The notes: a model not told the origin generated them from the sequence alone. Positions 45,144 through 62,775 are shown, counted from the stretch's first letter. The stretch is 64,000 bases of DNA from an uncultured Gammaproteobacteria bacterium (GCA_964551925.1 CAZKFA010000001.1:16281-80280); one strand, 5' to 3'. Numbers and translations are program-made.

Positions 45144-45178
45144 TGATATTATTTTAGCATTATGGTGCTAGGGTTTAT

Positions 45179-45191
45179 TATACACTGTATA
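45179..45191. repeat. Iterated palindrome core TATACACTGTATA upstream of thyX
   Basis: Read directly. Confidence 0.7.
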
Positions 45192-45280
45192 GTGAGGAAT
45201 TCTGAGGTGTACGTAAATTCACTAGACTTGCTTTAGGAGCTGTAATTTGGTGTTAAAATTTAGGTATACGGGGGTATAAT

Positions 45281-45682
45281 ATGATTGGAGAGGATGAAGT
45301 GATCTTCGATACTTATAAGCAAGTTAAGAAGCTTATGGCTGCTGGTGTTCCAGAGCCTCAAGCTGAAGCTCAAGTAGAAATTTTTATTCAATTTATAGAC
45401 GGCAATTTGGCAACAAAAGTGAGTCTAGCTCAAGTTGCTGCTGATTTGAAGCGAGATATGAAGGAGCTTGAGGCTGGTTTGAAGCGAGATATGAAGGAGC
45501 TTGAGGCTGGTTTGAAGCGAGATATAAAAGAACTTGAAACCAATCTCAAGCACGATATCAAAGACTTAGATCTCAAAATAGAAAGTTTACGAATTAATCT
45601 AAGCAAAGAGATCACTATTAAGATGGGTGTGATGGCAGCGATCACTATTTCGGTGCTAGCGACTTTAATTAAACTTGGCTAG
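45281..45682 (+). CDS. DUF1640-family coiled-coil protein with C-terminal TM anchor; contains 33-bp tandem DNA repeats (45448-45546) encoding LKRDMKELEAG x3
   Basis: 'FDTYKQVKKLMAAGVPEPQAEAQVE...NLATK' matches the DUF1640 N-terminal signature; C-terminus 'MGVMAAITISVLATLIKLG'. Confidence 0.55.
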   Translation: MIGEDEVIFDTYKQVKKLMAAGVPEPQAEAQVEIFIQFIDGNLATKVSLAQVAADLKRDMKELEAGLKRDMKELEAGLKRDIKELETNLKHDIKDLDLKIESLRINLSKEITIKMGVMAAITISVLATLIKLG

Positions 45683-45686
45683 AATG

Positions 45687-45936
45687 GACTTGTTGCGAAA
45701 ATCGCCCATAGCTGCGTTGCGCTCGTCCTCAGAATTACGGGGGCTTCATTTAATATTGAAGCATTCAGTAAAATTGACCCCTGAACATTGACGGGTAGTC
45801 AACTCAGCTTCCTCGTCCTCGCAAGCCTTACGAGGGGATCGTTATCTACAATCTCGGCTAAGAATGGAAGCCCCCGGAGCATCAAGAATAATTGCTTTGC
45901 AATTATTCGCAGATAGAACGATTTTCGCAACAAGTC
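45687..45936. mobile_element. MITE-like 250-bp element bounded by perfect 18-bp terminal inverted repeats (GACTTGTTGCGAAAATCG ... CGATTTTCGCAACAAGTC), GC-richer than its flanks, with internal nested hairpins
   Basis: TIRs read directly; internal gggggcttc/gaagccccc and cctcg...cgagg stems; no ORF of its own. Confidence 0.45.
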
Positions 45937-45945
45937 TAATATAAG

Positions 45946-46113
45946 TTACTTAGCAAACTTATTAAACATGACCATTTTAGTACTTTCTTGATTAACTTGT
46001 TTCTCGGCTTCACGCAGTTCGTCGATTTCCGTTGCCATTGCTAGAAGCTGCTCATTGATTAGCTTTGGGTCTATTTGCCAAGATTTGGCGTCGATAAATT
46101 GTAAGTCTTTCAT
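45946..46113 (-). CDS. Small hypothetical protein (55 aa) translationally coupled (ATGA overlap) to the 3' end of the 627-aa gene
   Basis: AGGAG 7 nt upstream of the ATG; ATG overlaps the TGA of the upstream gene; 'MKDLQFIDAKSWQIDPKLINEQLLAMATEIDELREAEKQVNQESTKMVMFNKFAK'. Confidence 0.35.
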   Translation of the reverse strand: MKDLQFIDAKSWQIDPKLINEQLLAMATEIDELREAEKQVNQESTKMVMFNKFAK

Positions 46114-47993
46114 TGTTTGGCTCCTAAGTTTTGGAATAATTCTGTGATTGCATTTAAAATTCTCTCCAATATCGCAGTAAAATTAGCATCTTGAGATATG
46201 CTGCGCACTAGAGTTTGAGCTCGTGCTTGTTGGGCTTCTCTTGCTTCTTGTCTTTCAAGCTTACTAGCTTTGTTTGATACTGGTTGAGCAGAGATTTTCC
46301 AAGTAAAACGAGTAACTTCACTTGCTAAATTGCCTTCAATATTATCATTAGCAGCTTTAACTTGACGATCTATCCAAAGTACTCTATCAGCTACTTTATC
46401 AATTTCTGTCAAACGATTACCAGCACTGAATTGTGAATCAATGTGATTTAATCGGATCAATTCTACTGTTGGGTATCCACTAGTAAGATTTAATTCTTTA
46501 CACATAAAATCAATTGCAAGATTTTGGTAAGTTGAATTTTGAGTTTGTTTTGTTATTTTTTGATATAACCTTAAGACAGCTGCTGTCTTAAGATCATCAT
46601 TATCACTTGATAGTAATTCGATAATACTAGGATTAGCATCAATAACTCTACGCAGTAGATCCTGAGTGGGATTAGTGATTAGAGTTGTTGCATCAGCGTT
46701 TTTGATTGCTGTTAATTTACTTAGTAATTGAGTATAATTTGCTCCGTCAAAAAGATTTGTAGTACCTGTGTTTCTTCCAAGAATATCGTCAGATATATTT
46801 TTTAAATGGTTCAAGGTGTCACTTCTGATAACGTCAACCGTGCGAGAATTGATTGGATCATCAGGACATTGACTCTCATAAGAGCTAATAATTTGACTAT
46901 GATAATGATTTTTTAATCCTTCAATGTCGGTTTTAATTTGAGCTAGAACACCTTCTACAAGAGTCTTTTGACTAGATTCATCCATAAAACGATCGATTTG
47001 TTTAGTGAGTCTTGCTTGTGGATCAAGAATGGTCGGGTGCTTGAGTATAGCTAACATTAACTGTTGTTGCTCGTCCGCTTTTCTTGCTTGTTGCACATCA
47101 CCTTTTTGGAAGGCTGCAATCTTTTGTGTTTGAAGATGTTTATAAGCATCTAAGAAATCTTTTATAGCCTCATGTTTGTCGCCTGTTATAAATTTATCAA
47201 CGAATAAATCAAAAGTAAAAATTTGTTTATTAGGAACAATAACAACTTTTTTAAAAGTACGATCAATAACTTCCGCGCCAAGCTTGACTGATGGTGGTAC
47301 TGTAATGCCTCTTGCTATGCCGGTTTGTGCTATTAAGCGCTGAGCAGCAGCGGCTTGGAAAATAGCAGATCCGTTTCCTTCCGTTAATACTTTATTCTCT
47401 GCTTCTGATAATTTTGTACGTAATTCTTGTGTAGTTGCTTTATCAACTAAGACTAAACTATGCATGAAGGTCAATGCTAGTTCGCTATCACCAAGCATAT
47501 GGTGAGCTTCTTTGACATCAAAATCACCAAACTTTCTGAAAGGTTCTAGCGCACCGATATCTATTAATTTCTCTGGATCATTCGTTGCATTATAAGCTAC
47601 AATCGCATCAATTTTGGCAGGATCAAGCTTTGTTGTTTTTAAATATGCAGCAGTAGTTGCAATGGCAGCTTTTTTAATCTCTGGATCACCAGAGAGTAGT
47701 AATTCACGAAAAGCTTTAACGATGGTTTTGTCTTCTTTTGCTTTATCAGTAAGAAAAAATTTCTTATCACCTGTGGCAATTTGTTCTTGTAAAACTTTTA
47801 AAATTGGTAAAAGTGTCTCACTGTCTTGAGCGGTGGCAGCTTTAGCAAAACTTGTTTTCAGGCTATCAAGACTAAGAGTTGTAGCGCGATTAGTGCCTTT
47901 CCACCATGATTTTAATTGAGCTAATTTCCCTTGAGTTTGAATTGGACTTGGGGTGTCGCCAATTTTTGCTGGTGTAAATGCTGTAAGTGACAT
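46110..47993 (-). CDS. Large hypothetical protein (627 aa), no recognisable domain, no signal peptide or TM
   Basis: Long uninterrupted ORF with coding-like composition; orphan. Confidence 0.55.
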   Translation of the reverse strand: MSLTAFTPAKIGDTPSPIQTQGKLAQLKSWWKGTNRATTLSLDSLKTSFAKAATAQDSETLLPILKVLQEQIATGDKKFFLTDKAKEDKTIVKAFRELLLSGDPEIKKAAIATTAAYLKTTKLDPAKIDAIVAYNATNDPEKLIDIGALEPFRKFGDFDVKEAHHMLGDSELALTFMHSLVLVDKATTQELRTKLSEAENKVLTEGNGSAIFQAAAAQRLIAQTGIARGITVPPSVKLGAEVIDRTFKKVVIVPNKQIFTFDLFVDKFITGDKHEAIKDFLDAYKHLQTQKIAAFQKGDVQQARKADEQQQLMLAILKHPTILDPQARLTKQIDRFMDESSQKTLVEGVLAQIKTDIEGLKNHYHSQIISSYESQCPDDPINSRTVDVIRSDTLNHLKNISDDILGRNTGTTNLFDGANYTQLLSKLTAIKNADATTLITNPTQDLLRRVIDANPSIIELLSSDNDDLKTAAVLRLYQKITKQTQNSTYQNLAIDFMCKELNLTSGYPTVELIRLNHIDSQFSAGNRLTEIDKVADRVLWIDRQVKAANDNIEGNLASEVTRFTWKISAQPVSNKASKLERQEAREAQQARAQTLVRSISQDANFTAILERILNAITELFQNLGAKQ

Positions 47994-48029
47994 ACTAGTT
48001 ATATAAAGCTATGAGTTATTGGTTTTTGA

Positions 48030-48050
48030 TATTTACTATACAGTGTATAA
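48030..48050. repeat. Iterated palindrome copy TTTACTATACAGTGTATAATGA; its right arm forms an extended -10-like TGTATAAT
   Basis: Read directly; lies in the divergent promoter region between the 627-aa gene and the small membrane-protein gene. Confidence 0.7.
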
Positions 48051-48096
48051 TGAATGAAAATACCTAAGATTATTGTGCTCTTAGAGAGAAGGTTTA

Positions 48097-48117
48097 CTTA
48101 CTATACACCGTATAATA
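48097..48117. repeat. Iterated palindrome copy (variant core TATACACCGTATA); the reverse complement of its central 19-mer is identical to the copy at 56834-56852
   Basis: Read directly; TATAAT-like right arm. Confidence 0.65.
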
Positions 48118-48192
48118 AGATATCGTAAATTTTTAATATCAGTTACCATTTGACCCTCTTGATTATAGTTAGCAAATAGTACAATCCCTTCT

Positions 48193-48441
48193 GTGAGCTT
48201 ACCAAGAGCAAATTATCAAAAAATGAGAGCTGAGATATATAAGGTTATAGGCTTTGGACTCTGGACTCCATTCGGTTCAATGATGGTAAATCTGGTTATT
48301 AGTCAGCCCAGTAATTTTGACATCAAATTTTTTGTGTATCTATTAGCAGCATCAATTTTACTCCCGCTTGGCGGACGTTTTCTTGACATTGCGGTAACAA
48401 TAATATACGATACGGATGAGGAGAGATCAGATGCAAGTTGA
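48193..48441 (+). CDS. Small membrane protein (2 TM), paralog of 57259-57501
   Basis: GTG start (or ATG at 48223); '...AEIYKVIGFGLWTPFGSMMVNLV' vs paralog 'AEVLKTIGFILATPFGINALNLL'. Confidence 0.5.
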   Translation: MSLPRANYQKMRAEIYKVIGFGLWTPFGSMMVNLVISQPSNFDIKFFVYLLAASILLPLGGRFLDIAVTIIYDTDEERSDAS

Positions 48442-48562
48442 TAATGAATCTATAAATTGGATTGCGATTATTTGCGTAGCCTTATTACCTGCCCCATTAG
48501 CTTTGTTGTTTATGCATAACTTTCGCGACAAAACTCTAGAGAAGAGTAAGAAGCTTAATTAA
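48431..48562 (+). CDS. Very small membrane peptide (43 aa), start overlapping the stop of 48193-48441 (ATGcaagtTGA); analogous to 57124-57290
   Basis: GAGGAG 8 nt upstream; 'MQVDNESINWIAIICVALLPAPLALLFMHNFRDKTLEKSKKLN' has one TM; found by manual translation, since it is below the ORF-track length cutoff. Confidence 0.3.
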   Translation: MQVDNESINWIAIICVALLPAPLALLFMHNFRDKTLEKSKKLN

Positions 48563-48563
48563 A

Positions 48564-48998
48564 TTAATTCTGCTTACTAATCCGCAATAGTGCTAGTTCA
48601 GAGCTTTTCATCAATCCAGTTGGAATAGCAGCACCCGCTTCAGCTTGCTCTGCTTCTGCTAGCTCGCGTTCGTATTGTGTGTAAATAGCCTCGCTCTCAG
48701 CAAAATATTCTTCGTTACGTTTAGCTTGTTCTATAAGATCGCTAACGTCAAGAGTGCCATCGTGCAAAGCCTTGATAGTAGTTCTCACTTGCTCATTAGC
48801 ACCAAGGTAAATTTGTTTCAACTCTTCTCTCACGAAATCAAGATCAAGATAGAAATAAAGATTGCGCAACATCTCGCATCGGAACCAGTTGGATTTGGTC
48901 TTCACGATCGAGTCAAGAATAAATCTAGCATTGTCTTTGCGACGCTGTTCGTCACGACTGGCTGCTAGATTGGTGTTGTGGAGATATGATTTATTCAT
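48564..48998 (-). CDS. Hypothetical protein (144 aa), 22 bp downstream of the 860-aa gene, likely co-transcribed
   Basis: ORF with a charged C-terminal Ala/Glu-rich segment. Confidence 0.45.
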   Translation of the reverse strand: MNKSYLHNTNLAASRDEQRRKDNARFILDSIVKTKSNWFRCEMLRNLYFYLDLDFVREELKQIYLGANEQVRTTIKALHDGTLDVSDLIEQAKRNEEYFAESEAIYTQYERELAEAEQAEAGAAIPTGLMKSSELALLRISKQN

Positions 48999-49020
48999 GA
49001 TTATTTAAGCAGAGTTTATA

Positions 49021-51603
49021 TTAAAGAGACAAGGCTTGGGATTGATATGACCGATTTGGTGCAGATCTTTCTGTTAATGCGATACTTTGAGGTCTTTCCA
49101 TTAGATTGTGTATAAATTGCATCAAGGACATCAATAGTCTGTTAATAATGATAGCAAATGGTTGATTGTCGTCAGCATCTTGGAAATAAGGTGATTCCTT
49201 GATAACTTCTTGTAAGAGTTTGGCGTTTCTAGTGTCCAAGCCCATGGCTTCTAAAGCATGTCCCAGGCGTTTCTCGTAAGTGCTTTGCCTGCTAAGCTTT
49301 GTTGCTTGAATTTCCCACGATTCACTAAAGCCTTTTTTACTTGGCGTGTTTAGGGTATTGAAAAATATTAATTCTCTTTTGATATGATCGATATCAGTTC
49401 TTAAATTTAGGGCTCTATGAGTTTTGGCTGCTAGATCGGGGGTGACTAGAGCTGCAAGTCCAGTGATACCAATGTGTGATTCTAAAGTATTTAGCTTCGT
49501 TGTGATTGTACTAGAGCTTGATTGTGACCTCTCGTATTCAAATACATTTGCTAATTGTCTGTAAGCAGAGGCTTGACGACTAATGTATTCTTTTATTTGT
49601 GCTGCTAAATCTTTTCTGTTCTTGAGATCCTCACCATCAGCAGGTAGTGGATCACGGACATGATTAGTGATTAATTCAAGTGCAGCCTTAGCCGAGCTTG
49701 CGACGCTTGTAAAATTACTTGCTTTTGGAATTTGTGAGTTGAAATTATTAACTATTCGAGTTAAGGCAGTATTAAGTTCTACCCTTTCTGTATCAGTTAA
49801 ATTTAACTCTCTGAGAGCATCTTGAGGAATGAAATACTCACCATCGTCACCTTCTTTCTTCTCAATGAAACGATTGATTAGCCTTTCCGCTGCTCCTTGA
49901 TAGGCTCTTACGGCTTTTTCTGCAATATCAACTCTTGAAGTTTCTTGACAAAAGCTGCTTAAGTGAGTAAATACTCCAGCAGTACGAGTAGTATCAAATA
50001 TAGTCTCTGAATTGATTATAGAATATAATGGTTGCCAAAAACTTGTTTCAAGTTTAGTTTGCTCAGCTTCAAACCTATTTAAAATTTCTTCTTTTGCACT
50101 AATCTGACCTTGTAAGTCGCGCTTAAATTGAGCTAGGCTACTTAGATTCTCTTTGTATAAACCAGTAGCAGAAGCATCGACAAAATCTTGCTTAAATAAT
50201 TCTTCGAAATCATAATTACCATCGTGACCTTGGCTTGTAAGAAATTGCATAAAGCGATTCTTTAAACCATCAAGACTATCATCATTAGAGTCTTCTGTAG
50301 TTGCCGCATGCGGTACGTCAAATAAACGCTCAAAGAACAAATTTTTTATACCGGCAGCTGAGTTGTTGATTCTGATATTATCAAAAGCCAATTTGACCGC
50401 GGCTAACTGCTTATGAAAAGCATATTCGTCTTCGGTTAATTTCTTTGTTAGTCTGGTAATTTCTTCAGTTATTTTAGTAAGATGTGTTTGACTAGCATCG
50501 ACAACTAAAGTCTGTAGACCAGGATTCGTAGCTTGTTCTGCCGCTGTACATAAATTGCTATCTAAGTCAATTGGAGAGTGGGATTTGACTTTTTGTGTAA
50601 GTTCTGCAAACTTGTCTTTAAGTCTATTGAGTTGTACTGTTGTTTCATTAAGAGGCTCCATTTCTTTATGTAACAATTCAAGTAAATTTTCTCTTGCAGT
50701 TTTGATAGAGCAGCCTCTCTCTGAACTCTCTTCATGAGCCACGATAACGCCGTGAACAGCTGTTACTAGATCGTTATTAGCTCTCATTGGAGTAGGCATA
50801 CCAGCTAAGAATAATTGTCCTAAGGCTTGAGTATATTGTTGACGTATATTTGGACTAAGATCTAGATCTGGATTTAATAACCTATTTGGATTGCTAATAA
50901 GTTCTTTGATACTAGTCTCCAGTCTTGCTCTGACTACTAGACCTACTTCTCCATGAAACTTATCACCAATAGTATCTAGTAAATTAGCAACTGTTTCAGA
51001 TACATTTAATTTCTTCTGGCTTTTGTTTGCGATCTCAACAAGCAAAAGCGCTGCAGCAGTGGCGCTGCGGGCTTGAGCATCATAGTCATCAGAACCTGAG
51101 TTGCTCACTATATCTACGATATAAGTTGGACAAGCGCTACTAAACCAAGCTCTTTGTTTAGCGGCTGCTTCAATTGCAGTGCTGATGAGCTCTTGAGTAG
51201 CATTCCTTATATTTGATGGAACTTCTTGATTGTTTGATAATTCGATTAATTTAGCAAGTAAACCGCGATCATTAATTAAAACGGCTTCTTTATTAACGAC
51301 TCCGTCACGATGAAGATTAGTTGCTAAATCTACAAATAAGCGTTTAGCATCGTCTATAGTTACTGAGGCTCCATGGGGATCTTGTAACCAGATTTGATTG
51401 TCCTCGTGAATTAAGTCGTTTTTTAAAGTTGTAGCAGCGTCTAGAGCAGCGTTGTGTATTGGATCTTGAGATTCGAGACCAACTACCGCTTGAATAGTAG
51501 AACTGCTTGCTCGAGCTACTTTGCGAGCAGTGTTACCAAGAGCTTCATGACCTGTGTACCAGGCATTGCGACATTTGTCTTTTATAGCATCAACTAAATA
51601 CAT
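49021..51603 (-). CDS. Large hypothetical protein (860 aa), orphan, soluble
   Basis: Long ORF; no motifs recognised. Confidence 0.55.
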   Translation of the reverse strand: MYLVDAIKDKCRNAWYTGHEALGNTARKVARASSSTIQAVVGLESQDPIHNAALDAATTLKNDLIHEDNQIWLQDPHGASVTIDDAKRLFVDLATNLHRDGVVNKEAVLINDRGLLAKLIELSNNQEVPSNIRNATQELISTAIEAAAKQRAWFSSACPTYIVDIVSNSGSDDYDAQARSATAAALLLVEIANKSQKKLNVSETVANLLDTIGDKFHGEVGLVVRARLETSIKELISNPNRLLNPDLDLSPNIRQQYTQALGQLFLAGMPTPMRANNDLVTAVHGVIVAHEESSERGCSIKTARENLLELLHKEMEPLNETTVQLNRLKDKFAELTQKVKSHSPIDLDSNLCTAAEQATNPGLQTLVVDASQTHLTKITEEITRLTKKLTEDEYAFHKQLAAVKLAFDNIRINNSAAGIKNLFFERLFDVPHAATTEDSNDDSLDGLKNRFMQFLTSQGHDGNYDFEELFKQDFVDASATGLYKENLSSLAQFKRDLQGQISAKEEILNRFEAEQTKLETSFWQPLYSIINSETIFDTTRTAGVFTHLSSFCQETSRVDIAEKAVRAYQGAAERLINRFIEKKEGDDGEYFIPQDALRELNLTDTERVELNTALTRIVNNFNSQIPKASNFTSVASSAKAALELITNHVRDPLPADGEDLKNRKDLAAQIKEYISRQASAYRQLANVFEYERSQSSSSTITTKLNTLESHIGITGLAALVTPDLAAKTHRALNLRTDIDHIKRELIFFNTLNTPSKKGFSESWEIQATKLSRQSTYEKRLGHALEAMGLDTRNAKLLQEVIKESPYFQDADDNQPFAIIINRLLMSLMQFIHNLMERPQSIALTERSAPNRSYQSQALSL

Positions 51604-51648
51604 TACATATATATAACGAAGTCTTAACCTATTTTTTGATGGTTAAAT

Positions 51649-51680
51649 AAAAAAAAAGACCCTAATTTAGGGTCTTTTTT
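51649..51680. terminator. Bidirectional intrinsic terminator: A9 - GACCCTAATTTAGGGTC - T7
   Basis: Read directly; 48 nt after the stop of the 999-aa gene (minus strand). Confidence 0.8.
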
Positions 51681-51702
51681 GCGTATATTCTAAGTATCTT
51701 GT

Positions 51703-54702
51703 TTATGCAACTGTTGTAGGACTTGCTTCTGAACTTGGTCTAGGGCTAGTTTCGAGAGTTGTTTTACCCATTCTTTGATTGATTTCCATGGTGGCACTTT
51801 TCAAAGCAGCTAAGAAGCCAGTGTGTTCATCAGCTTCTGGAATCGCAGCGACTCGCTTTTGGAAGTCAGCTACAGCTTCAACTTTCTCAAGTCCAAGGAA
51901 TCTCATTGTCATAGTCAAACCATTTTTTACGGAATCTTTTAATTTGGAGAGAATCTTTTTAACAGCAGAAGAGTTCTTCTCTCTATCGTATAGATCCCAG
52001 ACATCAGTGAGTTCTGAGCTTTCAGGAAAAGCTTTAACTTCATCTTCTAGTCTATTAATTTCGTTGGCATGCTTAATATCAAAACTCCGTTTTGTAGCTC
52101 TGATATCGGTTAATACTTTTGAACTTAGGCTCGTGACTAGAGTGTTAGCACTGTTTAGCAAATCCTTCAGCTTTTGATCTAATTTCTCAGGTTTCTTTTC
52201 ATTAGTTTCTTTGAGCTTAAGAAGAGTTTCGGTGATTAAGCGAACTCTGCCTAGTTGTACCTTGGCTCTATCGAAAGGAGGTAGTGAATTGTCTTTGCTT
52301 GTATCCAAAAGCTCAGAGTCTTCCGTACTGAATTTAATTAGTCCATCAAAAGCTTTACCCTCTTTTAAAGTAGTATGGAAATGTTCCAGAGCTGTTGATT
52401 GAGTCTGACCCCAATTCTGTAACAAAGTTATAAAGCCATTATAATCTTGTGTTCCACCAATAGAGAGTGCTTTAACACTACTTGTTACAGCATCTATTGC
52501 TGCATTAGTTGCTGTTAACTTGGCTGTTTCTAATTCTTGTTCAGCTTTAAGTTTTGCAGATTCAATTTCTGCTCTACAAACTTCAGCTTGTGCCTTAAAT
52601 CCATTTCTGAATTCATCATCAAACTGACCATTCTCGTCAAGCATCGAATCTACTAGATATTTAGCAGCTGTTGCGTTGACGGTGCGAGCTTTGGTTAGAA
52701 TTGGTTTAATGACTGAGTTTGCCATAAGTTCAACAAACTTAGCTTCACTTTTAGCTTCTTCTTTAGCTTTTTTAACTTTGTCGGTCGCTAGAATTTTGAG
52801 GCTCTCAGCTATTTTTTTAGAGTCATCGTCTTTTACTGTCAAAATCCAAGTGCTTTGTATTTTGAGAACTTCAGCAAGTTTCTCAGCAGCAGAGAGAGTA
52901 GTCTGATCAATATCTTTAACTGCTTTTGCCGTTGTTAACTGTTTGTCTCTTTCAGCATTTGCTTTATCAGTTAGATTTTGACGAATTGCATTGACATAGT
53001 CTGCAGTAGTTGCTTCTTTTTGTGCGGCAGTAACTGCTGCATCAATAGTATTTTTCGCGGCTGTTGCTTCAGTAAGTTTGGTATTAGCTTCATCAAGCTT
53101 AGCCTGTGCCTCAAGAATAGCTTTATCTGCATTTGCAATAGCGGTTTGCTCGGATGCTGTTAGATTATTTGGATCGGCTGGGGCTGCTAGGTTTGCTTTA
53201 GCTTGATCGGCAGCTTGTTTAGCTTGATCGGCAGCTTGTTGAGCTGTAGTTGCTGCATCAAAAGCCGCTTGGGTAGTAGTTTGCTCTGCTACTAACGCAT
53301 CCACATTTGCTTTAGCGGGAGCTGCTGTTTTCCAATCTACTGCTGTAGTAGCGTTACCATTTGGACCTATAGCTTCTCTTATTTTTTCAACTTGTTCTTT
53401 ATTTAAGGTTGGATTTAATCCTGAGCCTGCTGGTAAGTACCTGCTGATATCAAGAGTATTACCTGCTGCTGGGATTGATAGTATGGCTTCTAAGTTTCTC
53501 TTGCCAATTTCTACAGGGTTAGCCGTATTATTTGCAAGAATTGCTTTTGATTGTTTGACAACATCATCATAGAAGGATTGTTCAAGCTTAGTATTCCCTG
53601 AGATGAAAGAAGTACTAATCTTTACCGCTGTACCACCTGCTTTGCCAGAGTTTCTGATAGCAGTACTTAGAGAACCTTCAAGGTTTTTGTATTTGAGTGC
53701 ATCAGCTTCTTTCTGAGGTCCTATCATAGCAGCAGTATTTAGGAAATCTGTCAGAGCATAAGCTGCTTCTTTGGCTTCTTCTTCGCTAGAGGCTTTGAAT
53801 AAAGTTTCTAATTTTTCAAGAAAGTCAGCTAGAAAAGTTTTTTGTGCTGCAGTTTTAGCATGCTTTTCAATAGCCTTGGCTCCGTCTTTAAGGACATCGA
53901 CTGAGATCTTTTCGAATATCTCACCTTTTAATTCTGTAACTTGTGATTTGATTGATTCAAGCCCATCTCCTAGTGTTTCTAGTGGTCTTTGAGCAAGCGA
54001 TTGAACTTTGAGATAAACGTGATTGGCAAGAGCTTTGCCAACAGCACCATAACTTCTTGATAGTTTACCAATGAAACCAGTCTTTGGATTTGATAATTTC
54101 TCCAAACCTTGAGATCTAATTAAATCAACAACATTGCGCAAAGATGTTTCTGGATTGGCATCTAAGATACCAAGTATCATATCTTTTTGTTCGGGTTCTA
54201 TTCCACTTGACGGGAAGGAATCAATTGCTGTGACCAATAAGTCTCTAACATCTCCTTGAATAGGTTTGAGGTATTCACCATTACTATCTTCGTCTCGCAT
54301 TCTTAAGATTGCAAATAAATCTTCCAAGACTTTTGCTTGTTTGTAAACTATAGCGTTGCCTTTAGGGCTAGCTGATTTTAAGTTGCCAGAAAGACCTGCT
54401 AAGATCTCCTCATAAGCTCTTTTTGCTTTAGGTCCAAATTCTACTTCTACTCCACCTGTTAATTCTTTGAATTTATCATCAGGATCAGTTTCGGTTTTAT
54501 CTTTGCTTCTATATTCTTCTGTATTTTTGAGTTCATCTGCTGCTTTGAATTTCTCAGCAAGTGCGTCAATAGGGTCTTCTTTTGATTTGCCACCTGGCTT
54601 GGTTGCTCGGAGGTAAGCTGCCACATCGGCTTTAGTTAATTTAGTAGGAGCTTCGGTTGCTCTTTCTATTAAAGGTTTTGTTTCTATTACTTTTACTACC
54701 AT
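51703..54702 (-). CDS. Large hypothetical protein (999 aa) with a long Ala/Lys/Glu/Thr-rich predicted coiled-coil central region
   Basis: Long ORF; '...AQKEATTADYVNAIRQNLTDKANAERDKQL...' heptad-like; no signal peptide. Confidence 0.55.
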   Translation of the reverse strand: MVVKVIETKPLIERATEAPTKLTKADVAAYLRATKPGGKSKEDPIDALAEKFKAADELKNTEEYRSKDKTETDPDDKFKELTGGVEVEFGPKAKRAYEEILAGLSGNLKSASPKGNAIVYKQAKVLEDLFAILRMRDEDSNGEYLKPIQGDVRDLLVTAIDSFPSSGIEPEQKDMILGILDANPETSLRNVVDLIRSQGLEKLSNPKTGFIGKLSRSYGAVGKALANHVYLKVQSLAQRPLETLGDGLESIKSQVTELKGEIFEKISVDVLKDGAKAIEKHAKTAAQKTFLADFLEKLETLFKASSEEEAKEAAYALTDFLNTAAMIGPQKEADALKYKNLEGSLSTAIRNSGKAGGTAVKISTSFISGNTKLEQSFYDDVVKQSKAILANNTANPVEIGKRNLEAILSIPAAGNTLDISRYLPAGSGLNPTLNKEQVEKIREAIGPNGNATTAVDWKTAAPAKANVDALVAEQTTTQAAFDAATTAQQAADQAKQAADQAKANLAAPADPNNLTASEQTAIANADKAILEAQAKLDEANTKLTEATAAKNTIDAAVTAAQKEATTADYVNAIRQNLTDKANAERDKQLTTAKAVKDIDQTTLSAAEKLAEVLKIQSTWILTVKDDDSKKIAESLKILATDKVKKAKEEAKSEAKFVELMANSVIKPILTKARTVNATAAKYLVDSMLDENGQFDDEFRNGFKAQAEVCRAEIESAKLKAEQELETAKLTATNAAIDAVTSSVKALSIGGTQDYNGFITLLQNWGQTQSTALEHFHTTLKEGKAFDGLIKFSTEDSELLDTSKDNSLPPFDRAKVQLGRVRLITETLLKLKETNEKKPEKLDQKLKDLLNSANTLVTSLSSKVLTDIRATKRSFDIKHANEINRLEDEVKAFPESSELTDVWDLYDREKNSSAVKKILSKLKDSVKNGLTMTMRFLGLEKVEAVADFQKRVAAIPEADEHTGFLAALKSATMEINQRMGKTTLETSPRPSSEASPTTVA

Positions 54703-55019: not shown

Positions 55020-55901
55020 ATGACTACAAGGTACGTCTACGGTCCAGTGCATTCCTGGCGCTCAGGCACTTCTCTGGGTATAGACCCAATTGGTAGTACT
55101 TCTACTTGTTCTTTTAATTGTGCTTATTGTCAGCTTGGTAAGATCCAGAATATTACTCAAGAGATCAAGGAGTATGTGCGAACTGCTGATGTCATCAGGG
55201 ATCTACGTGAATTAGAAACGGCTGGACAATTTAATTATGAAAATCTAGATGTGATAACTTTTGCAGGTTCTGGAGAACCCACTCTAGCAGCGAATCTTGG
55301 CGAGATGATCCTGGAGATTCGTAAACTTTATGCTGGTCGTTCTAAGCGAGTACCGATATCTATTCTTACTAACGCCACGATGTTAGAACATCAATCTGTG
55401 CGTGATGCTTTATTGCAGGCTGATCTCATCTCATTGAAGCTAGATGCCGCTAATGATGAGGTTCTCAGGAGTATTAACCAGCCTGCTTCCGGTATTACTA
55501 TACAGTGTATAGTAAGTGGGATTAAATTACTCCAGAAGTCTTGTGTCATTGCGAGCGAAGCAAAGCAATCCAATTCTAGATTACAACTACAAATTATGTT
55601 TATGCCAAAGTTTATCAAAGACACTCAGTATCTTAATGAGATGATTGCTTTAATTAAAGATCTCGGTATGCGTTACATTCAGATTAATACCCCAACACGT
55701 GCTAAACCTCTCTCTAAGACCGGGGAGTATTGGCTTGATACTCGTGGTAATCATTATGGACCAGGTTCTAAAGTAGTGAAGCCGGAATTTATTGAATTCA
55801 CTGAGCTTCCTGTGATTAGCGAAGCAGATGCTTATATGCTAGAAGATAAATTGTTAGCAGCTGTTCCAGAGTTAGAGATAGTCAATGTTTATAAACGCTA
55901 G
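55020..55901 (+). CDS. Radical SAM enzyme of an uncharacterised subfamily
   Basis: 'YGPVHSWRSGTSLGIDPIGSTSTCSFNCAYCQLG' gives the CxxxCxxC cluster near the N-terminus; 293 aa; its stop abuts the next gene's start. Confidence 0.7.
   Translation: MTTRYVYGPVHSWRSGTSLGIDPIGSTSTCSFNCAYCQLGKIQNITQEIKEYVRTADVIRDLRELETAGQFNYENLDVITFAGSGEPTLAANLGEMILEIRKLYAGRSKRVPISILTNATMLEHQSVRDALLQADLISLKLDAANDEVLRSINQPASGITIQCIVSGIKLLQKSCVIASEAKQSNSRLQLQIMFMPKFIKDTQYLNEMIALIKDLGMRYIQINTPTRAKPLSKTGEYWLDTRGNHYGPGSKVVKPEFIEFTELPVISEADAYMLEDKLLAAVPELEIVNVYKR
55495..55515. repeat. 21-bp perfect iterated palindrome TTACTATACAGTGTATAGTAA inside the radical SAM coding sequence (encodes ..IQCIV..)
   Basis: Read directly; in-frame, no stop introduced. 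Confidence 0.8.
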
Positions 55902-56663
55902 ATGGAAATTAACCCTATTATAAATTTGAATCTTACTGAATTGCCTAATACTAAACAAGGCTTGTTGGATATCTACTCAAACTATCTTGCAGAGAGGATT
56001 ACAGATTATAAGCAAATTGGAGTTGTTGAGTTGAGCTTAGCTTCTAGTGCCCTACTTGAAATATTACCAGAGATTTATAATATCCTCAGGAACTATAATC
56101 TTCAAGTATCTTTTGGTAGTATTGTTGATCTTGACTTGGTTCTAGCCTTGCAGGATCTCAAGCTACCAGCAGGGATTAGGATCTTTGCACCAGCTTTTGA
56201 TGAAGATGTTTTTCGCTTTGTGATAGAACAAGATTGGCACTATATACCGGGAGTGGCTTGTGTAGAGGACTTCAAGGAAGTCTTGTCTTGGATGCCTAAT
56301 CTTATGAGTGTGAAGGTTTTTCCAGTTTATAATTTGTCACTTCTTAAAACACTTGCAACACCATATCCAGAATTGCGTTTGCCAGCAAATATTACTAGGA
56401 CCAGTTCAGTCACTGGCTTACCCATCTCTAGTCCGCGCCAATATCAAAAAATTCGTCAACGTTTTTTGCATGAACTAGATTTAGAGTTATCCTTCCAAAC
56501 AAGGCAGTTTGATATTCCAACTTTGCTTGCAACAATTAAACAACAGTCTCCTGCTACTAAGCTTATAGCTACTGGGTTTGCTGGTATCGAGCCTGATGAA
56601 GAGTTGCTAGCAAGTTGGGGCTTTGATGCAGCTGCGACAAGATTAGGGAGCCTGCGTGGCTGA
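55902..56663 (+). CDS. Hypothetical protein with weak resemblance to KDPG/KHG aldolase (Eda) TIM-barrel fold
   Basis: 'SVKVFPVYNLSLLKTLATPYPELRLP' vs Eda '[30 protein letters not shown]'; the catalytic-residue context is not clearly conserved. Confidence 0.35.
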   Translation: MEINPIINLNLTELPNTKQGLLDIYSNYLAERITDYKQIGVVELSLASSALLEILPEIYNILRNYNLQVSFGSIVDLDLVLALQDLKLPAGIRIFAPAFDEDVFRFVIEQDWHYIPGVACVEDFKEVLSWMPNLMSVKVFPVYNLSLLKTLATPYPELRLPANITRTSSVTGLPISSPRQYQKIRQRFLHELDLELSFQTRQFDIPTLLATIKQQSPATKLIATGFAGIEPDEELLASWGFDAAATRLGSLRG

Positions 56664-57120
56664 TAATTTTATCAATATAGTTCTCTATCAACCAGAGATC
56701 CCACAAAACACTGGCAACATAGCAAGGCTTTGTGTTTCTAATGATCTGCATCTGCATCTTATTGAGCCACTCGGTTTCAAGATGACTGATAAGTACCTTA
56801 AGCGTTCTGGTTTGGATTATTTTCAATATCTTAATTATACGGTGTATAGTAATTGGCAGCACTTCTTAGAAGGCAATCAAGGAGCTAATCTCTGGTACTT
56901 AACCACTAAGGCTACTAAATTATATTGGGATGTAAATTATACGATGGGTGATTATTTGGTTTTTGGACCAGAGACTAAGGGGCTACCAAAGGCAATCATG
57001 GCGCTTAATTCAGAGTACTTGATTAAAGTGCCTATGAGTTCAGAGAATGCACGCTCACTCAATCTAGCAAGTACTGTACAAACAGCTTACTATGAGGCTT
57101 ATAGGCAGCTCCAAGTCTGA
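56656..57120 (+). CDS. trmL: tRNA (cytidine34/uridine34-2'-O)-methyltransferase, SPOUT family
   Basis: Aligns end to end with E. coli TrmL: 'NIVLYQPEIPQNTGNIARLC', 'GDYLVFGPETKGLP', 'LNLASTVQTAYYEAYRQL'. Confidence 0.8.
   Translation: MADNFINIVLYQPEIPQNTGNIARLCVSNDLHLHLIEPLGFKMTDKYLKRSGLDYFQYLNYTVYSNWQHFLEGNQGANLWYLTTKATKLYWDVNYTMGDYLVFGPETKGLPKAIMALNSEYLIKVPMSSENARSLNLASTVQTAYYEAYRQLQV
56834..56852. repeat. Iterated palindrome copy ATTATACGGTGTATAGTAA inside the trmL coding sequence (variable loop 'NYTVYSNW')
   Basis: Read directly; 19-mer identical to the reverse complement of the central 19-mer of the copy at 48097-48117. Confidence 0.75.
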
Positions 57121-57123
57121 GCT

Positions 57124-57290
57124 TATTTTTTCTCAACTTTCTGAAATAGTTCGGGATAGCGTTCACTGGGCAAGGTCCAAAATCTACTTTTGGTAATGCC
57201 AAAAGCGACGCTTGCTAACATAGCACCAGCAAATAACGGACCAAAGACATCAGCCCAGTTAGCGCAAATGTAATCTATTAATTTCTCCAT
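57124..57290 (-). CDS. Small membrane peptide (55 aa) whose start overlaps the last 30 nt of 57259-57501; analog of 48431-48562
   Basis: GGAGGA 5 nt upstream; 'MEKLIDYICANWADVFGPLFAGAMLASVAFGITKSRFW...' (NW plus TM as in the other copy); found by manual translation. Confidence 0.3.
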
Positions 57291-57501
57291 CTATTTCCTC
57301 CATTAAGCCAAGAGAGCGGTTTACAAGTACGTAAGCGGGTAGTAGTAAAGCACTAGATATAATCCAACCAAGAGCCAGATTAACAGTGGAGTGAAAACCT
57401 GTCAATAGATTCAAAGCATTGATTCCAAATGGAGTAGCCAATATAAACCCAATGGTTTTGAGAACTTCTGCTTTATGCTTAAATTGCTGAAAACTTTTCA
57501 C
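57259..57501 (-). CDS. Small membrane protein (2 TM), paralog of 48193-48441
   Basis: 'MKSFQQFKHKAEVLKTIGFILATPFGINALNLLTGF...' shares the N-terminal motif with the other copy; transcribed divergently from the 1367-aa gene. Confidence 0.5.
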   Translation of the reverse strand: MKSFQQFKHKAEVLKTIGFILATPFGINALNLLTGFHSTVNLALGWIISSALLLPAYVLVNRSLGLMEEIDGEINRLHLR

Positions 57502-57654
57502 CCATTGAACTGTAAATCATAAGGAATAAATTTAGGAGGGTCAACCGGTAACTAGTCTAATCGACCTAGGTTAAGGCTAGGTTAAGAGATTCTTTGTCAA
57601 AAAGCATATATAGAAGTGGTTCTACTGGTATCTGGGCTTCTAAGGTAATAATAT

Positions 57655-60600
57655 ATGCAAATAACTCAACACAGAATGGTACGGGAAGCTGCTGATGGAA
57701 ATGGAGCAGAGAAAGATCTTGGAACGATCCATGTTTCAGATCAAGTAATTGGTGATAGCTTGATGCAAGCACTCTCTCCTTTTAATAAAGATTTTTTTTC
57801 TGGAGCTCTTAATCCTGCTAACGCCTATTGGTCTGGAGGCGCTGTTGATAAAGGTGATTATGTGTACAAGCTTGATTTAACTGAGGCTGATAAGAAGAGT
57901 GGTGGTAAATTCGGAATAGTATTTCAAGATCAGTTTGCTCATAATCAATCTATTGCATTTGTGTTTTCTATTGTTGACGGCAAGTTAATTATTTCAAAAA
58001 GTAAATTAGTTGATGATGCTAGTGGTCCTGACTTTGGTGGGGCTAAGGACTCATATCAAGATACTTATGTTGCAATATCTCATGCTCTTCATGGTAGTGA
58101 TAGCGAGAAAACAAAATATACTTTGAATTTTGAAGATGGAATTGATGCAGAAGAAGAGAAAATAATTAAATATATTACGGCTTATGCAAATCTGGATGTT
58201 AAAGCTAATCCACATCTTAAAAATATAATATTAGAATCTAGAGCTTTGATTAAAGACCACTTGGATACTGCGATGCTGAAGGTTAAACAAGATCCAAGCA
58301 AAATCTCTGAGTACATTGATTTGGTCAAATCTTATAAAAATTCTGGTTTATCTAAATTAAGTGAACAAACAGTTCGACAAAATGGACAGTCTAGTAATTA
58401 TAATACTCACTTAAATTTAGTTGATAATATTTTATCTACAGAACCAACGCAATTCGGTGCATTAGTAAGATTTCATCCGTATAGTTTAGATAGAGTTAAG
58501 ACTGTTGATGATCTTGTAGTCAGAGAGCTTTTGATAAGAGCTTTAAGAACAGGTAATTTGTCAAGTGGAAATTTGGACGGATTGGATACTGCCTTGAAGA
58601 CTGTGGTTGATAAGTATTTAGATATTGCTGCTGCAGGTATGAACGTAGCTGATAGAGCTACTAAGCAAGCTGAGCTTCTTAAACAAGTGAAAGATTATAT
58701 AGAGCCATATAAGAATAAGACTGCTAGTGATTTTACGGAACTTATAAATAATCCTGATAGTTTTAATAGGTTCTTCGCGTTTTTGCAAGTCTCGCAAAAC
58801 GACAAGATAGAAGCCAATCTTAAGCTTCTAACACAAGAGCTTACTGAGCTATTAAGAAAAGAAACAAATTTAACAAAAAAAGATCAGCTTGTTGATAAGT
58901 ACAAGAAACTTCTTGTTCAATATGGAGCCTTTTTTGCTGGATCAGGAACTGCTGATATTGATAAATTGGCAATTGATTCAACTAAGTTAAGCGACTCATC
59001 AAAACACCAACAAATATTCAATGGCTTTATGACTCTCATTAGAACAAAGCAAGAGGCGCGTATTGAGCATAAGGTTAATTCCGATAACTATAAGAATATT
59101 GGAGCTAACATAAGTTCAATGTTAGGACACACTCTAGTTGCTGGAGATGAGCTGAGCTTTGAATATGATGCTGCCACTAAAACATTCTACGTAGCTGCTA
59201 AGCATGCTGTAGCATCAGGCAGTACGAAAGCTTCTGACAAACTTAAATACACTATGCTTGCTGTGAAAGTTAATGATGATGGTACTTTGACTGCAGTGAG
59301 GTCTGAAGAGGGTGTTACTAGGTCTTATAGCGATCTCAAAAAAGAATTAATTACTAAGTTAGCTGATCCGAATGCTAAGAAAAGTAATGTTAGTCACACA
59401 GACTTCGTTAAACTATATACAACTATTGATCATACAGAGGTAAATGAATTAATAACTAGCCTTGTTGATAAAATTACCGTAGCTAATGTTAGTGATTCAA
59501 AAATTACTGCTTTGATATCAGCTTTAAGCTCTGCTAAAGACCAAGAGAAGGTTAAGATCCTTATGCAGAGTAAGTTTGATGCTTTAATCAAGGATTGTAT
59601 TTTATCTAATCCGCCAACTAATGACCAGAAAACTAAACTTACTAATATTTGGAATAAGTTTAAGGCATTTTATCCAGCTACAGCTCCGGAAACTTTGAAG
59701 AAAGTATTTAAGGATTTGATTGATACTGTGCATGCTGATGTTGTTGCTGTTGTTGCTGTTGGCACGGTTGCCCCTGTTGATAATTCTGCAAAGAGAGCTC
59801 TGTTAACGACAATGTTAGACACAAAATTTGCCAAAGTTGCTGATGTGAATATTTCTACAATTATAAATGCGATTATGGCTGGTGAAGCCACAACTAACCC
59901 AACTACTCCAAGTCCTAGCCCGAGCGTGGCACCTACTGTAGATCTAACTACTTTAACTGCTTCCACCCCAACAAATATTATTGCCAATATGAATACCGCT
60001 CTAGAAGGGATTTACAATCAAGGTGTCGCCAATCAGCCAGAGCGTTTGAGATATCTAGCTAGAGAGTTGGCGTTTGATACTTTAGATGCGCATGAAAGAA
60101 CCGAGTTAGCTAATATATTGAGATTCCATGCTAAGGATGATGAGAAGCGTAATATAGCGGGGTTAGTAGATGAATATTTAACTGCTTTAGATAAAGTAGA
60201 TACTAATGAAACTAGGTTAGGAGTATCGTTTGAGAAGGCTAATGACAAAGTTTCTTTTGCTGCTGATGTAACTAAGGAGATAGAATTATTTAATACATTA
60301 CTTAGTAAACTTTCTGATTCTACTTGTGATGATCCACTTTCTAGTTATTTTAATTTCAATGCGCAAGAATTGCGTCAATTGACAACTAAAGCTGCTCCTT
60401 TGCCGCGGTCAGTAATTACTAAGCTTGATACAATCAAGTCAGAAACTGGCATTGATATACGCCAAGCATTTAAAGATTCCAAAATTGATATCAATTCTGG
60501 TGAGGGCAAAGCTCTACTACAAAGATTATTTGAGGCTGCTAATAAGACTATTAGGAGGGAAGCAGCACCAGAGATCCAAGTGGCGGCAGGTGAAACTCTT

Positions 60601-61758
60601 GGTGGTCCACAACTTGCTTTAGAACTACTTTATATGACTAAATACAACCCATTAGTCAGAGCACAAGCTGTAAACACCAGAAAGTTTCTTGATTTCTTTA
60701 ATAACCCGGATGCTATTAATGGACCGCAATTTGCAAGTGCTATTGACGCCGAGAGACAAATACACTTAGCTCAAGTATTGATGATGTACCAATCGCCAAT
60801 TGAAGAACATATGACTAAACCCACTCTGGATGCTGCAAGGACAATCTATGAGCAGATTCCAGGCGAGGTGTTTAATTACAAACAGACTCCACAATTCTTT
60901 ATGCATGAGAATGGACAACCAGTTCTTAAGAAGATATATAAGCTTGGAGATAAGGCTAATCTGGTGATGCCATTAGCGGCTAATATACGAGTCTCTGGTA
61001 AAGAAGCTGATAAGAATTTCTCAGTTGAAGGAGATAACTTAGCTCTCAAGGCTATTCTTGAAGCCACTGGTGTGATTCCAGTTGGTGATGAAGAAAAATT
61101 CAGTAATTTTATTCAAGGATTTGCAACTAAGAACGCTGAAGGAGAATATAGCTTTGATAGGCCGGCTCAAGAACGTTTGGCAACTGAGCTTGCTAGAATA
61201 TTACCTTCTTTCGTTGAGACTTATAATCGCTTCAGTAGTAAAGAACCAGCTAATGATAATGAAAGAACTCAATTCGCTAAAGCAAAGACTGTTATAGACA
61301 AGCTTCTAGAGGTACAAGGGTCTTCTACTATATTGAGCGTTGAGACTGGCTATATCAAGATTAGTTTTGATGAATTCTTAGATAGTTTTACAAACTTTGT
61401 AACTAATATGAAGGCTTATAGAGATGTTAATGAGGCTGATATTCCAGATCCATCAATATGGTCTCAAGGTTTGCCAGGAGGCTACAATACTTCTGGAACT
61501 CCAATACCATTCAATGACATCTATGCGGCTTGGAGAGATAATAATAGAAACTTTAGTTTTAATAAATATATTTCCATGCAACAAGTTGCAACTGATCTAC
61601 CTATGAATAATCCTTGGTATCGCTACGCCACAGCTACTCCCGAGGAACAAGGTCAAATGAATCAAGATATTAATGCTCATCTTCGAGCTCAGACTGGTTA
61701 CTCAACATGGCGCCAGGCTAATACTCAGCCAGTGGCAAATAGATCTTTTCACGTTTAA
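57655..61758 (+). CDS. Very large hypothetical protein (1367 aa), orphan; contains a Pro/Thr-rich linker (~aa 740-770: TTNPTTPSPSPSVAPTVDLTTLTASTPTN)
   Basis: Long ORF, soluble, multi-domain appearance; no motif recognised. Confidence 0.55.
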   Translation: MQITQHRMVREAADGNGAEKDLGTIHVSDQVIGDSLMQALSPFNKDFFSGALNPANAYWSGGAVDKGDYVYKLDLTEADKKSGGKFGIVFQDQFAHNQSIAFVFSIVDGKLIISKSKLVDDASGPDFGGAKDSYQDTYVAISHALHGSDSEKTKYTLNFEDGIDAEEEKIIKYITAYANLDVKANPHLKNIILESRALIKDHLDTAMLKVKQDPSKISEYIDLVKSYKNSGLSKLSEQTVRQNGQSSNYNTHLNLVDNILSTEPTQFGALVRFHPYSLDRVKTVDDLVVRELLIRALRTGNLSSGNLDGLDTALKTVVDKYLDIAAAGMNVADRATKQAELLKQVKDYIEPYKNKTASDFTELINNPDSFNRFFAFLQVSQNDKIEANLKLLTQELTELLRKETNLTKKDQLVDKYKKLLVQYGAFFAGSGTADIDKLAIDSTKLSDSSKHQQIFNGFMTLIRTKQEARIEHKVNSDNYKNIGANISSMLGHTLVAGDELSFEYDAATKTFYVAAKHAVASGSTKASDKLKYTMLAVKVNDDGTLTAVRSEEGVTRSYSDLKKELITKLADPNAKKSNVSHTDFVKLYTTIDHTEVNELITSLVDKITVANVSDSKITALISALSSAKDQEKVKILMQSKFDALIKDCILSNPPTNDQKTKLTNIWNKFKAFYPATAPETLKKVFKDLIDTVHADVVAVVAVGTVAPVDNSAKRALLTTMLDTKFAKVADVNISTIINAIMAGEATTNPTTPSPSPSVAPTVDLTTLTASTPTNIIANMNTALEGIYNQGVANQPERLRYLARELAFDTLDAHERTELANILRFHAKDDEKRNIAGLVDEYLTALDKVDTNETRLGVSFEKANDKVSFAADVTKEIELFNTLLSKLSDSTCDDPLSSYFNFNAQELRQLTTKAAPLPRSVITKLDTIKSETGIDIRQAFKDSKIDINSGEGKALLQRLFEAANKTIRREAAPEIQVAAGETLGGPQLALELLYMTKYNPLVRAQAVNTRKFLDFFNNPDAINGPQFASAIDAERQIHLAQVLMMYQSPIEEHMTKPTLDAARTIYEQIPGEVFNYKQTPQFFMHENGQPVLKKIYKLGDKANLVMPLAANIRVSGKEADKNFSVEGDNLALKAILEATGVIPVGDEEKFSNFIQGFATKNAEGEYSFDRPAQERLATELARILPSFVETYNRFSSKEPANDNERTQFAKAKTVIDKLLEVQGSSTILSVETGYIKISFDEFLDSFTNFVTNMKAYRDVNEADIPDPSIWSQGLPGGYNTSGTPIPFNDIYAAWRDNNRNFSFNKYISMQQVATDLPMNNPWYRYATATPEEQGQMNQDINAHLRAQTGYSTWRQANTQPVANRSFHV

Positions 61759-61806
61759 TCTTTATTGTTATTCGCCTACTTTAACGTGGAATAATATAAC
61801 TAATAT

Positions 61807-62580: not shown

Positions 62581-62583
62581 AAT

Positions 62584-62730: not shown

Positions 62731-62775
62731 TGATGGAGCTGCTCATAATGAAGGGTCTCAAGTTATAATATACTA

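Follow-up and report, generated by a model that had tools for sequence, protein, structure and literature searches.

Between thyX and surE, in a 64-kb window of DNA from an uncultured Gammaproteobacteria bacterium (the window being the whole stretch analysed), lies a segment, positions 45144-61806, that is largely taken up by four very long open reading frames (ORFs). They encode proteins of 627, 860, 999 and 1367 amino acids (aa), which we call the giants. An earlier reading of the window from its sequence alone (the sequence-only reading) had singled out these ORFs as filling about 11.6 kb, and the figure holds: they cover 11,571 of the 16,663 nucleotides (nt) of the segment, and the longest stop-free run, 1368 codons, is far beyond what is seen in 200 shuffles of the region (mean 118, maximum 248). 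Two of the giants face small genes for membrane proteins with one or two transmembrane (TM) helices, and the remainder of the segment holds a few recognisable genes, hairpins and short repeated elements (Table 1).

Table 1. Genes and sequence elements in and next to the thyX-surE segment, in window coordinates (pI, isoelectric point; MITE, miniature inverted-repeat transposable element).
Feature	Position	Strand	Basis or context
g133: 133 aa, coiled-coil, C-terminal TM helix (residues 111-133), DUF1640/CCDC90-like	45281-45682	+	Pfam PF07798, E 6e-9
266-nt hairpin element, MITE-like, 25-nt terminal inverted repeats	45680-45945	.	fold -92 kcal/mol, z = -6.4
g55: 55-aa acidic ORF, pI 4.9	45946-46113	-	start overlaps stop of 627-aa gene (ATGA)
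627-aa putative orphan, hydrophilic; giant of cassette 1	46110-47993	-	ORF call
Two copies of 19-nt palindrome TACTATACASTGTATAGTA	48034-48052, 48099-48117	.	divergent promoter of 627-aa gene and g82
Cis element of cassette 1, GAGGGTCAAATGGTAAC	48142-48158	-	34 nt upstream of g82 start
g82: 82-aa small membrane protein, paralogue of g80	48193-48441	+	diverges from 627-aa gene
g48: 43-48 aa, one TM helix, basic tail	48416-48562	+	overlaps 3' end of g82
g144: 144-aa acidic putative orphan	48564-48998	-	22 nt downstream of 860-aa gene
860-aa putative orphan	49021-51603	-	ORF call
Bidirectional terminator-like hairpin, 13 pairs, flanking A and T runs	51652-51680	.	between 999- and 860-aa genes
999-aa putative orphan, central Ala/Thr/Gln/Lys-rich low-complexity helical region	51703-54702	-	ORF call
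Conserved trio: radical SAM gene, 253-aa aldolase-like gene, TrmL/SpoU	55020-57120	+	Pfam
g55b: 55 aa, one TM helix, basic tail	57123-57290	-	overlaps 3' end of g80
g80: 80-aa small membrane protein, paralogue of g82	57259-57501	-	diverges from 1367-aa gene
Cis element of cassette 2, GAGGGTCAACCGGTAAC	57536-57552	+	34 nt upstream of g80 start
1367-aa protein; giant of cassette 2	57655-61758	+	ORF call
149-nt hairpin element	62584-62732	.	surE-g156 spacer, z = -7.5
g156: 156-aa predicted lipoprotein (lipobox-like LSSC), no family match	62776-63246	+	next downstream of surE

In composition the giants resemble the genome around them. GC content is flat along the window (0.35-0.39 inside the segment, 0.36-0.44 outside), the relative synonymous codon usage (RSCU) of each giant correlates at 0.81-0.90 with that of the pooled housekeeping genes of the window (single housekeeping genes, 0.76-0.89), and GC at third codon positions is slightly below that of the housekeeping genes (0.21-0.26 vs 0.31). 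Six metagenome assemblies, independent of one another (L001-L003, L005, L006 and L037), contain the same DNA, 99.76-100% identical. Codon usage, ORF lengths and this recurrence together establish the four giants as real genes, long resident in the host genome. Across the assemblies of the locus the giants differ by 11 substitutions only (six nonsynonymous, five synonymous), too few for a ratio of nonsynonymous to synonymous rates.

The giants are hydrophilic (grand average of hydropathy -0.32 to -0.43, pI 5.5-7.7). A hydropathy scan found in them neither a TM helix nor an N-terminal hydrophobic signal of Sec or Tat type, in agreement with what had been read from the translations by eye; the one TM-like exception, weakly hydrophobic, is in the 1367-aa protein (residues 688-706). 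Their mutual dissimilarity, also noticed earlier, is borne out by blastp (best E 0.27), and hhalign found no homology between the 1367-aa family and the 627-aa protein. The Ala/Lys/Glu coiled-coil and the Pro/Thr linker that had been described could both be placed, the one in the 999-aa protein as an Ala/Thr/Gln/Lys-rich stretch at about residues 440-600, the other in the 1367-aa protein as a Pro/Thr/Ser linker at about residues 745-772. A single-sequence AlphaFold2 model of the 627-aa protein is all helix with a predicted local distance difference test score (pLDDT) of 46; for the C-terminal part of the 1367-aa protein the mean pLDDT is 58, reaching 65-88 over about residues 990-1260, and fold searches with this model of mean pLDDT 58, BFVD included, returned nothing significant. 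Translational coupling had been proposed for two of the genes with the small ORFs behind them. The 627-aa gene and g55, which is also called as a gene in independent assemblies, do overlap; the 860-aa gene and g144 are closely spaced without overlap. Where a strong bidirectional terminator had been reported between two of the giants, a terminator-like hairpin is indeed present.

Searches against Pfam, NCBIfam, PHROGs and PADLOC gave nothing above threshold for the giants, g144, g55 or the small membrane proteins, the best Pfam scores of the giants (E 0.001-0.1) all lying under the curated cut-offs, and phmmer and hmmsearch found no match for the giants among PDB sequences. When 5.8 billion proteins were searched by a word index, the queries of 1367, 860 and 627 aa each retrieved only themselves, and the 90% clusters of all four contain members from the same species only. 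An exhaustive HMMER scan of 1.84 billion representatives, with residues 168-1367 of the 1367-aa protein as query, brought up two relatives and no more: P0015 (988 aa, 32% identity, E 1e-56) and P0016 (1443 aa, 23% identity, E 3e-7). The three align end to end, with a common Pro/Thr linker and a conserved C-terminal part (about 744-1298). P0015 and P0016 have no Pfam match and a single, non-significant NCBIfam match between them (E 0.0099, 14.6 bits vs a cut-off of 540); a metagenome scan with the alignment of the family gave no match, and no relatives were found in viral contigs. On the strength of these searches the four proteins appear to be genuine orphans. Novel families without known function are common in uncultured or unsampled lineages.

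The 627- and 1367-aa genes share a setting, in which a small gene diverging from the giant (g82 or g80) is overlapped by a still smaller one (g48 or g55b). The sequence-only reading had described these as two paralogous, divergently transcribed pairs. The pairs exist, and g82 and g80 are paralogues (alignment score 77 vs 24 +/- 4.5 in shuffles), while g48 and g55b are alike only in size, in having one TM helix and in position (z = 0.3). A Kyte-Doolittle scan finds one hydrophobic stretch each in g82 and g80, and we infer a 2-TM topology for both. Fourteen of the 18 residues identical between the two are encoded by different codons, which points to an old duplication in which the protein was conserved. 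Pfam has no match at E <= 0.1 for any of the four small proteins except a sub-threshold one to DUF2933 for g48 (E 0.071, 13.7 bits, cut-off 21), and PHROGs has none for g82 or g80.

A similar arrangement is found in L007, the locus of P0015, where the P0015 gene diverges from a membrane gene of 72/74 aa (z = 2.8 vs g80) and from an overlapping 39-aa ORF with one TM helix and a KSKSKSKQ tail. There are accordingly three instances of the cassette: window 48142-48562 (with the 627-aa gene), window 57123-57552 (with the 1367-aa gene) and L007 307-688 (with P0015). All three have a 17-nt element with the consensus GAGGGTCAA[AC][TC]GGTAAC, and from its end to the start codon of the 2-TM-type gene the distance is each time exactly 34 nt. 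Its reverse complement contains a TTGACC -35 hexamer, and for g80 a promoter scan gives TTGACC-17-TATGAT at 57544-57516. At two mismatches or fewer, the element occurs in the window only at its two cassette sites (0.2 expected at three or fewer), and it was not found in the loci of the other relatives. On the side of the giant gene, AGGTTAAG(G)AGATT..T(T)GTCAAAA is common to the 1367-aa locus and L007. From these comparisons the cassette, in which the cis element and the two small genes (2-TM and 1-TM) are joined by a divergent giant, is a conserved four-part unit; it has been duplicated and is coupled to two giants, of 627 and 1367 aa, that have no detectable relation. The recurrence and the shared element lend real support to the earlier suggestion that giants and small membrane partners form a system. 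With no known family, fold or system matched, proteins and cassette alike are to be regarded as new kinds by default.

Two smaller observations concern the same cassettes. A direct repeat, CTAGGTTAAGG / CTAGGTTAAGAG, lies at 57568-57590 between g80 and the 1367-aa gene, and one copy of it is kept in the L007 cassette (AGGTTAAGGAGATT). The L006 assembly has 13 substitutions within 46 nt of g82 (48279-48324), the remaining roughly 9 kb differing at nine sites; the tract looks like a short recombination or gene conversion in the membrane-spanning part.

Comparison with relatives shows where the segment begins and ends. On the thyX side we compared L036, from the same sample series, with the window (L036 1-2298, with thyX at 1417-2196; window 44256-45050). 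The two are 94% identical in nucleotides across argF-thyX. Where the window continues upstream of thyX with g133 and the 627-aa cassette, the gene next to thyX in L036 is a histidine kinase of GAF-HisKA-HATPase type. Similarity ends within the first 90 nt or so of thyX, placing a sharp breakpoint at its 5' end; g133, the first gene beyond it, carries 33-nt tandem repeats. On the surE side, a metagenome scan yielded relatives with SurE 80-81% identical (L009-L012) or 63-65% identical (L013-L015). In six of these loci (L009-L012, L014 and L015) surE and g156 are kept together, the contig of L013 ending just past surE, and in five (L009-L012 and L014) murB is kept as well, followed where contigs reach by a Met-gamma-lyase-like gene, an Na/Ca exchanger and dnaE. 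Synteny breaks at the 5' end of surE, and the content upstream differs in every relative with sequence there: a 955-aa orphan in L011; orphans of 719, 389 and 847 aa in L012; two AAA_14/DUF4143 ATPases with orphans of 253, 774 and 544 aa in L009; and several orphans in L014. By phmmer, the hidden Markov model (HMM) of the 1367-aa family and hhalign, the giants of the window have no relation to the ORFs upstream of surE in L009-L012. The exception is L008, where P0016 lies, in inverted orientation, 2.4 kb from a SurE 80% identical to that of the window, so that the 1367-aa family was already upstream of surE in a common ancestor. P0016 is only 23-24% identical to the 1367-aa protein, while the nearby SurE keeps its 80%.

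Within the segment lies the conserved trio. Its radical SAM and TrmL genes recur, 55% and 57% identical, in L004, the one distant locus that was obtained when genomes were scanned with the radical SAM protein; there they flank an unrelated 362-aa ORF, and no giants are nearby. With such genes inside it, the segment is not one contiguous island. The accessory island that had been proposed is to be kept for its content, which varies against L036 and the relatives with sequence upstream of surE, and given up as a single block, the trio splitting it; no sign of recent transfer was found. By these alignments the giants diverge very fast and the locus turns over, and the segment is accessory, or variable, in content and native in composition.

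Several of the relatives' orphans upstream of surE have, by eye, an internal Gly/Ala-rich double hydrophobic segment between long hydrophilic regions (L012 4035-9950, L009 1204-5160 and L008 2578-3123), a layout that recalls membrane-inserted effector or Inc-like proteins. Downstream of surE, g156 is 36-44% identical to its counterparts in the six relatives that keep it there, and L025, a short contig, has a seventh homologue. Among the relatives, the junction of surE and g156 (62581-62775 in the window, with the 149-nt hairpin) is a hot spot for insertions: in L012 it is occupied by another hairpin, about 300 nt long and bounded by terminal inverted repeats (10772-11076), L010 (1258-3134) and L011 (5255-7131) have a 547-aa AAA-ATPase_like plus PDDEXK_9 gene with a second copy of the 3' end of surE behind it, and the spacer is a few bases in L009 and absent in L014.

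The two hairpin elements of Table 1 had been described as MITE-like and as sitting at both borders of the segment. Both hairpins are real, but the first is within the region and the second past surE, and each is single-copy, no second copy being present in the window or in the loci of the relatives. We rejected them as noncoding RNAs, Rfam having no match in the window, hairpin elements included. The 19-nt palindrome TACTATACASTGTATAGTA (extended form TTAYTATACASTGTATARTAA) has nine copies in the window vs 0.02 expected, at 13547, 22051, 39415, 45176, 48034, 48099, 55496, 56833 and 62790, six of them within 45-63 kb. Besides the pair in the promoter region of the 627-aa cassette, copies fall inside coding sequence, in the radical SAM gene, trmL, rsmE, the signal peptide of g156 and the 3' end of folC. 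No relative's locus contains an exact copy of its 13-nt core TATACASTGTATA, and the palindrome was rejected as a conserved regulon operator, being missing from all of them; a regulator particular to the species could use it as operator, or it could be a short palindromic element of the dispersed kind. Another palindromic motif, AATTAATTTTACANTGTAAAATTAATT, which has an ACANTGT core in common with the first, is found at 4131-4164 and 28170-28204, each time at the 3' end of a minus-strand gene, the two genes being unrelated, and a perfect hairpin with 26-nt arms lies at 42526-42580 between a DHH gene and mazG.

The rest of the window had been called recognisable housekeeping, which is mostly right: it holds serA, coaBC, sucCD, secA, fliA, mlaE, acs, folC and rne, together with a B12-radical SAM gene, an ftsH-like gene, ilvB, lptF/G, serS, rsmE, mazG, argF and thyX. 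Five further ORFs of at least 110 aa outside the segment are also without a Pfam or NCBIfam match (7393-8055, 17304-17666, 28203-28943, 37131-37595 and 39647-40960). No tRNA and no secretion-system machinery gene lies within the 64 kb, and no integrase, transposase or other mobility family was matched among the segment ORFs scanned. The host-associated bacterium that had been imagined finds no backing here, serA, ilvB, argF, acs, sucCD, FliA, LptF/G and MlaE pointing to a metabolically competent diderm. In comparison with PDB sequences, SurE and ThyX are best against Thermotoga and 6j61, and the SurE proteins of Coxiella and enterobacteria score below that of Thermotoga; AcsA shares no more than 50% identity with any plasmid-borne acs. 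In the Rne/Rng gene (23127-24830, minus strand) an 18-nt unit (36-nt super-unit) is repeated in tandem about ten times at 23336-23614, giving the RNase E/G homologue a repetitive C-terminal tail rich in Arg and Asp.

What might such a locus do? The reading we favour, tentatively and with less than even confidence, is that the giants are cargo, evolving fast and exported or released, and that the small membrane proteins are their dedicated partners. The thyX-surE interval would then be a lineage-specific variable segment of the chromosome, long native to the genome, holding three transcription modules for large, soluble, mostly alpha-helical and very fast-diverging proteins. Two of these modules would be copies of one cassette type, in which a conserved promoter or operator element drives two overlapping genes, one for a 2-TM protein (about 80 aa) and one for a 1-TM protein (about 40-55 aa), with the giant divergent. 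The small pair may be the dedicated membrane-side partner of the giant, serving holin-like release or export, immunity or anchoring, and the giants may be cargo acting outside the cytoplasm, like effectors or toxins that target other cells. Pair and giant would thus work together, and the giant would be exported. A bolder extension, which we rate as quite unlikely, is that the small membrane pair and its cis element form a portable device, not recognised before, for the export or release of, or immunity to, very large signal-less proteins from unrelated cargo families (the 627-aa and 1367-aa types). It would then be a minimal system of secretion or release in a bacterial lineage so far unsampled.

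Several points weigh against the export of the giants as cargo. That any giant leaves the cell is something we infer. Neither Pfam nor PHROGs relates the small proteins to a holin or immunity family, and peptidoglycan hydrolase, secretion ATPase and toxin domains are unmatched in the scanned ORFs (Pfam, NCBIfam, PHROGs and PADLOC). The module of the 999-, 860- and 144-aa genes has no small pair of its own, g82/g48 merely abutting its 3' end; the 1-TM partners have no detectable sequence similarity; and in L008 a 181-aa Gly/Ala-rich ORF takes the place of a small pair upstream of P0016. The organism appears metabolically self-sufficient, with no hint of a host, and the fast divergence also fits weakly constrained structural proteins.

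In one alternative nothing is exported and the giants are intracellular structural or scaffold proteins, cytoskeleton-like or membrane-organising, tethered to the inner membrane by the small proteins. The models predict all or mostly helical proteins with low-complexity helical stretches, the giants have no signal peptide and native codon usage, a tail-anchored coiled-coil protein (g133) lies within the same segment, and coiled-coil-rich proteins diverge fast without an arms race. We nevertheless consider it unlikely, as the content of the locus varies even at 80% SurE identity and in a strain 94% identical at thyX, which is unusual for core cell-structure genes, and as four unrelated families are present, not one. 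To the view that the giants are substrates of a type III, IV or VI system encoded elsewhere in the genome, with g144 and g55 chaperone-like and the small membrane pairs unrelated neighbours, we likewise give a low probability. Size, hydrophilicity, helices, orphan status, fast evolution, strain variation and the missing Sec signal make up a classic effector profile, to which the small acidic ORFs directly downstream of two giants and the hydrophobic hairpins seen by eye inside some relatives' orphans can be added. Yet the 64 kb hold no secretion-system gene, no effector, adaptor or chaperone family was matched, g144 and g55 included, nothing among the genes points to a lifestyle dependent on a host, and the shared cis element with its fixed 34-nt spacing ties the small pair to the cassette as more than an incidental neighbour.

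The giants could also be ordinary core genes of their lineage that look like orphans through sparse sampling, their orthologues having diverged past detection or been relocated. The databases hold one species-level population and few relatives, the 1367-aa family is near surE in L008 despite 23% identity, composition is native, and the 955-aa ORF of L011 is similar in layout by eye, with a beta-like N-terminal segment, a Pro/Thr linker and a Tyr/Pro-rich end. Set against this are the HMM, phmmer and hhalign comparisons, which relate no giant to the ORFs upstream of surE in L009-L012, and the different neighbour of thyX in L036, and we hold the idea to be rather improbable. Least credible of all, and very improbable in our view, is a recently acquired mobile island or prophage remnant. 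The locus is variable, hairpin elements are nearby and relatives have insertions at the surE-g156 junction; but GC and RSCU are uniform with the host, there is no tRNA in the window and no integrase or transposase family among the ORFs scanned, the giants lack a PHROGs match, relatives in viral contigs and a BFVD fold match, and the housekeeping trio sits inside the segment. A prophage or a defence island was rejected as a candidate, PHROGs and PADLOC having no match.

Should the giants indeed be cargo of the small membrane pairs, a cassette coupling two tiny membrane proteins to giant signal-less proteins would be a very simple route for handling large proteins, and an HMM of g82/g80 with the 17-nt element would provide a handle on a class of 'dark matter' genes. 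Whatever its function, the locus is a clean case of very rapid turnover and divergence of large genes between the stable anchors thyX and surE, useful for studying the birth and loss of orphan genes.

Three known kinds of system invite comparison. Like the Legionella Dot/Icm substrates and the type III substrates and Inc proteins of chlamydiae, the giants are large, predicted to be helical, domain-less, lineage-restricted and fast-evolving, and like the effectors of intracellular bacteria they are scattered among housekeeping genes with native composition; unlike those effectors, they lie in a window without a secretion system or markers of host dependence, and have no homology to known effector families. 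In colicin and bacteriocin operons the toxin gene is accompanied by a small membrane immunity protein on the opposite strand and by a small lysis protein. The giants resemble pore-forming colicins as large, signal-less, soluble proteins with elongated helical regions, as predicted, and with small membrane proteins on the opposite strand, and the palindromic operators in the promoter region of the 627-aa cassette are a further likeness. They differ in having no colicin, pyocin or immunity domains, in that the small genes are upstream and divergent, not downstream and convergent, and in that the 19-nt palindrome is not a recognised LexA box and also occurs within unrelated genes.

The closest working analogy is type 10 secretion, in which release of the toxin depends on a holin, as with TcdE and TcdA/TcdB in C. 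difficile or the lysis cassette of the Tc toxin in Yersinia entomophaga. Holins are very diverse, and a failed family match is a weak negative; still, unlike in type 10 secretion, the small proteins here match no holin family, no endolysin or peptidoglycan hydrolase domain and no spanin gene is found in the segment ORFs scanned, the cargo has no toxin domain, and the small genes diverge from it. In general plan the two agree: the giants are large, hydrophilic and without a Sec or Tat signal, and lie beside genes for small membrane proteins, which are 40-82 aa long with predicted membrane-spanning stretches and a charged tail and are encoded by overlapping genes in each pair. Two reports (PMC10516005, PMC10847048) describe such a route, in which large toxins without a signal peptide are proposed or shown to be released via small phage-like membrane proteins.

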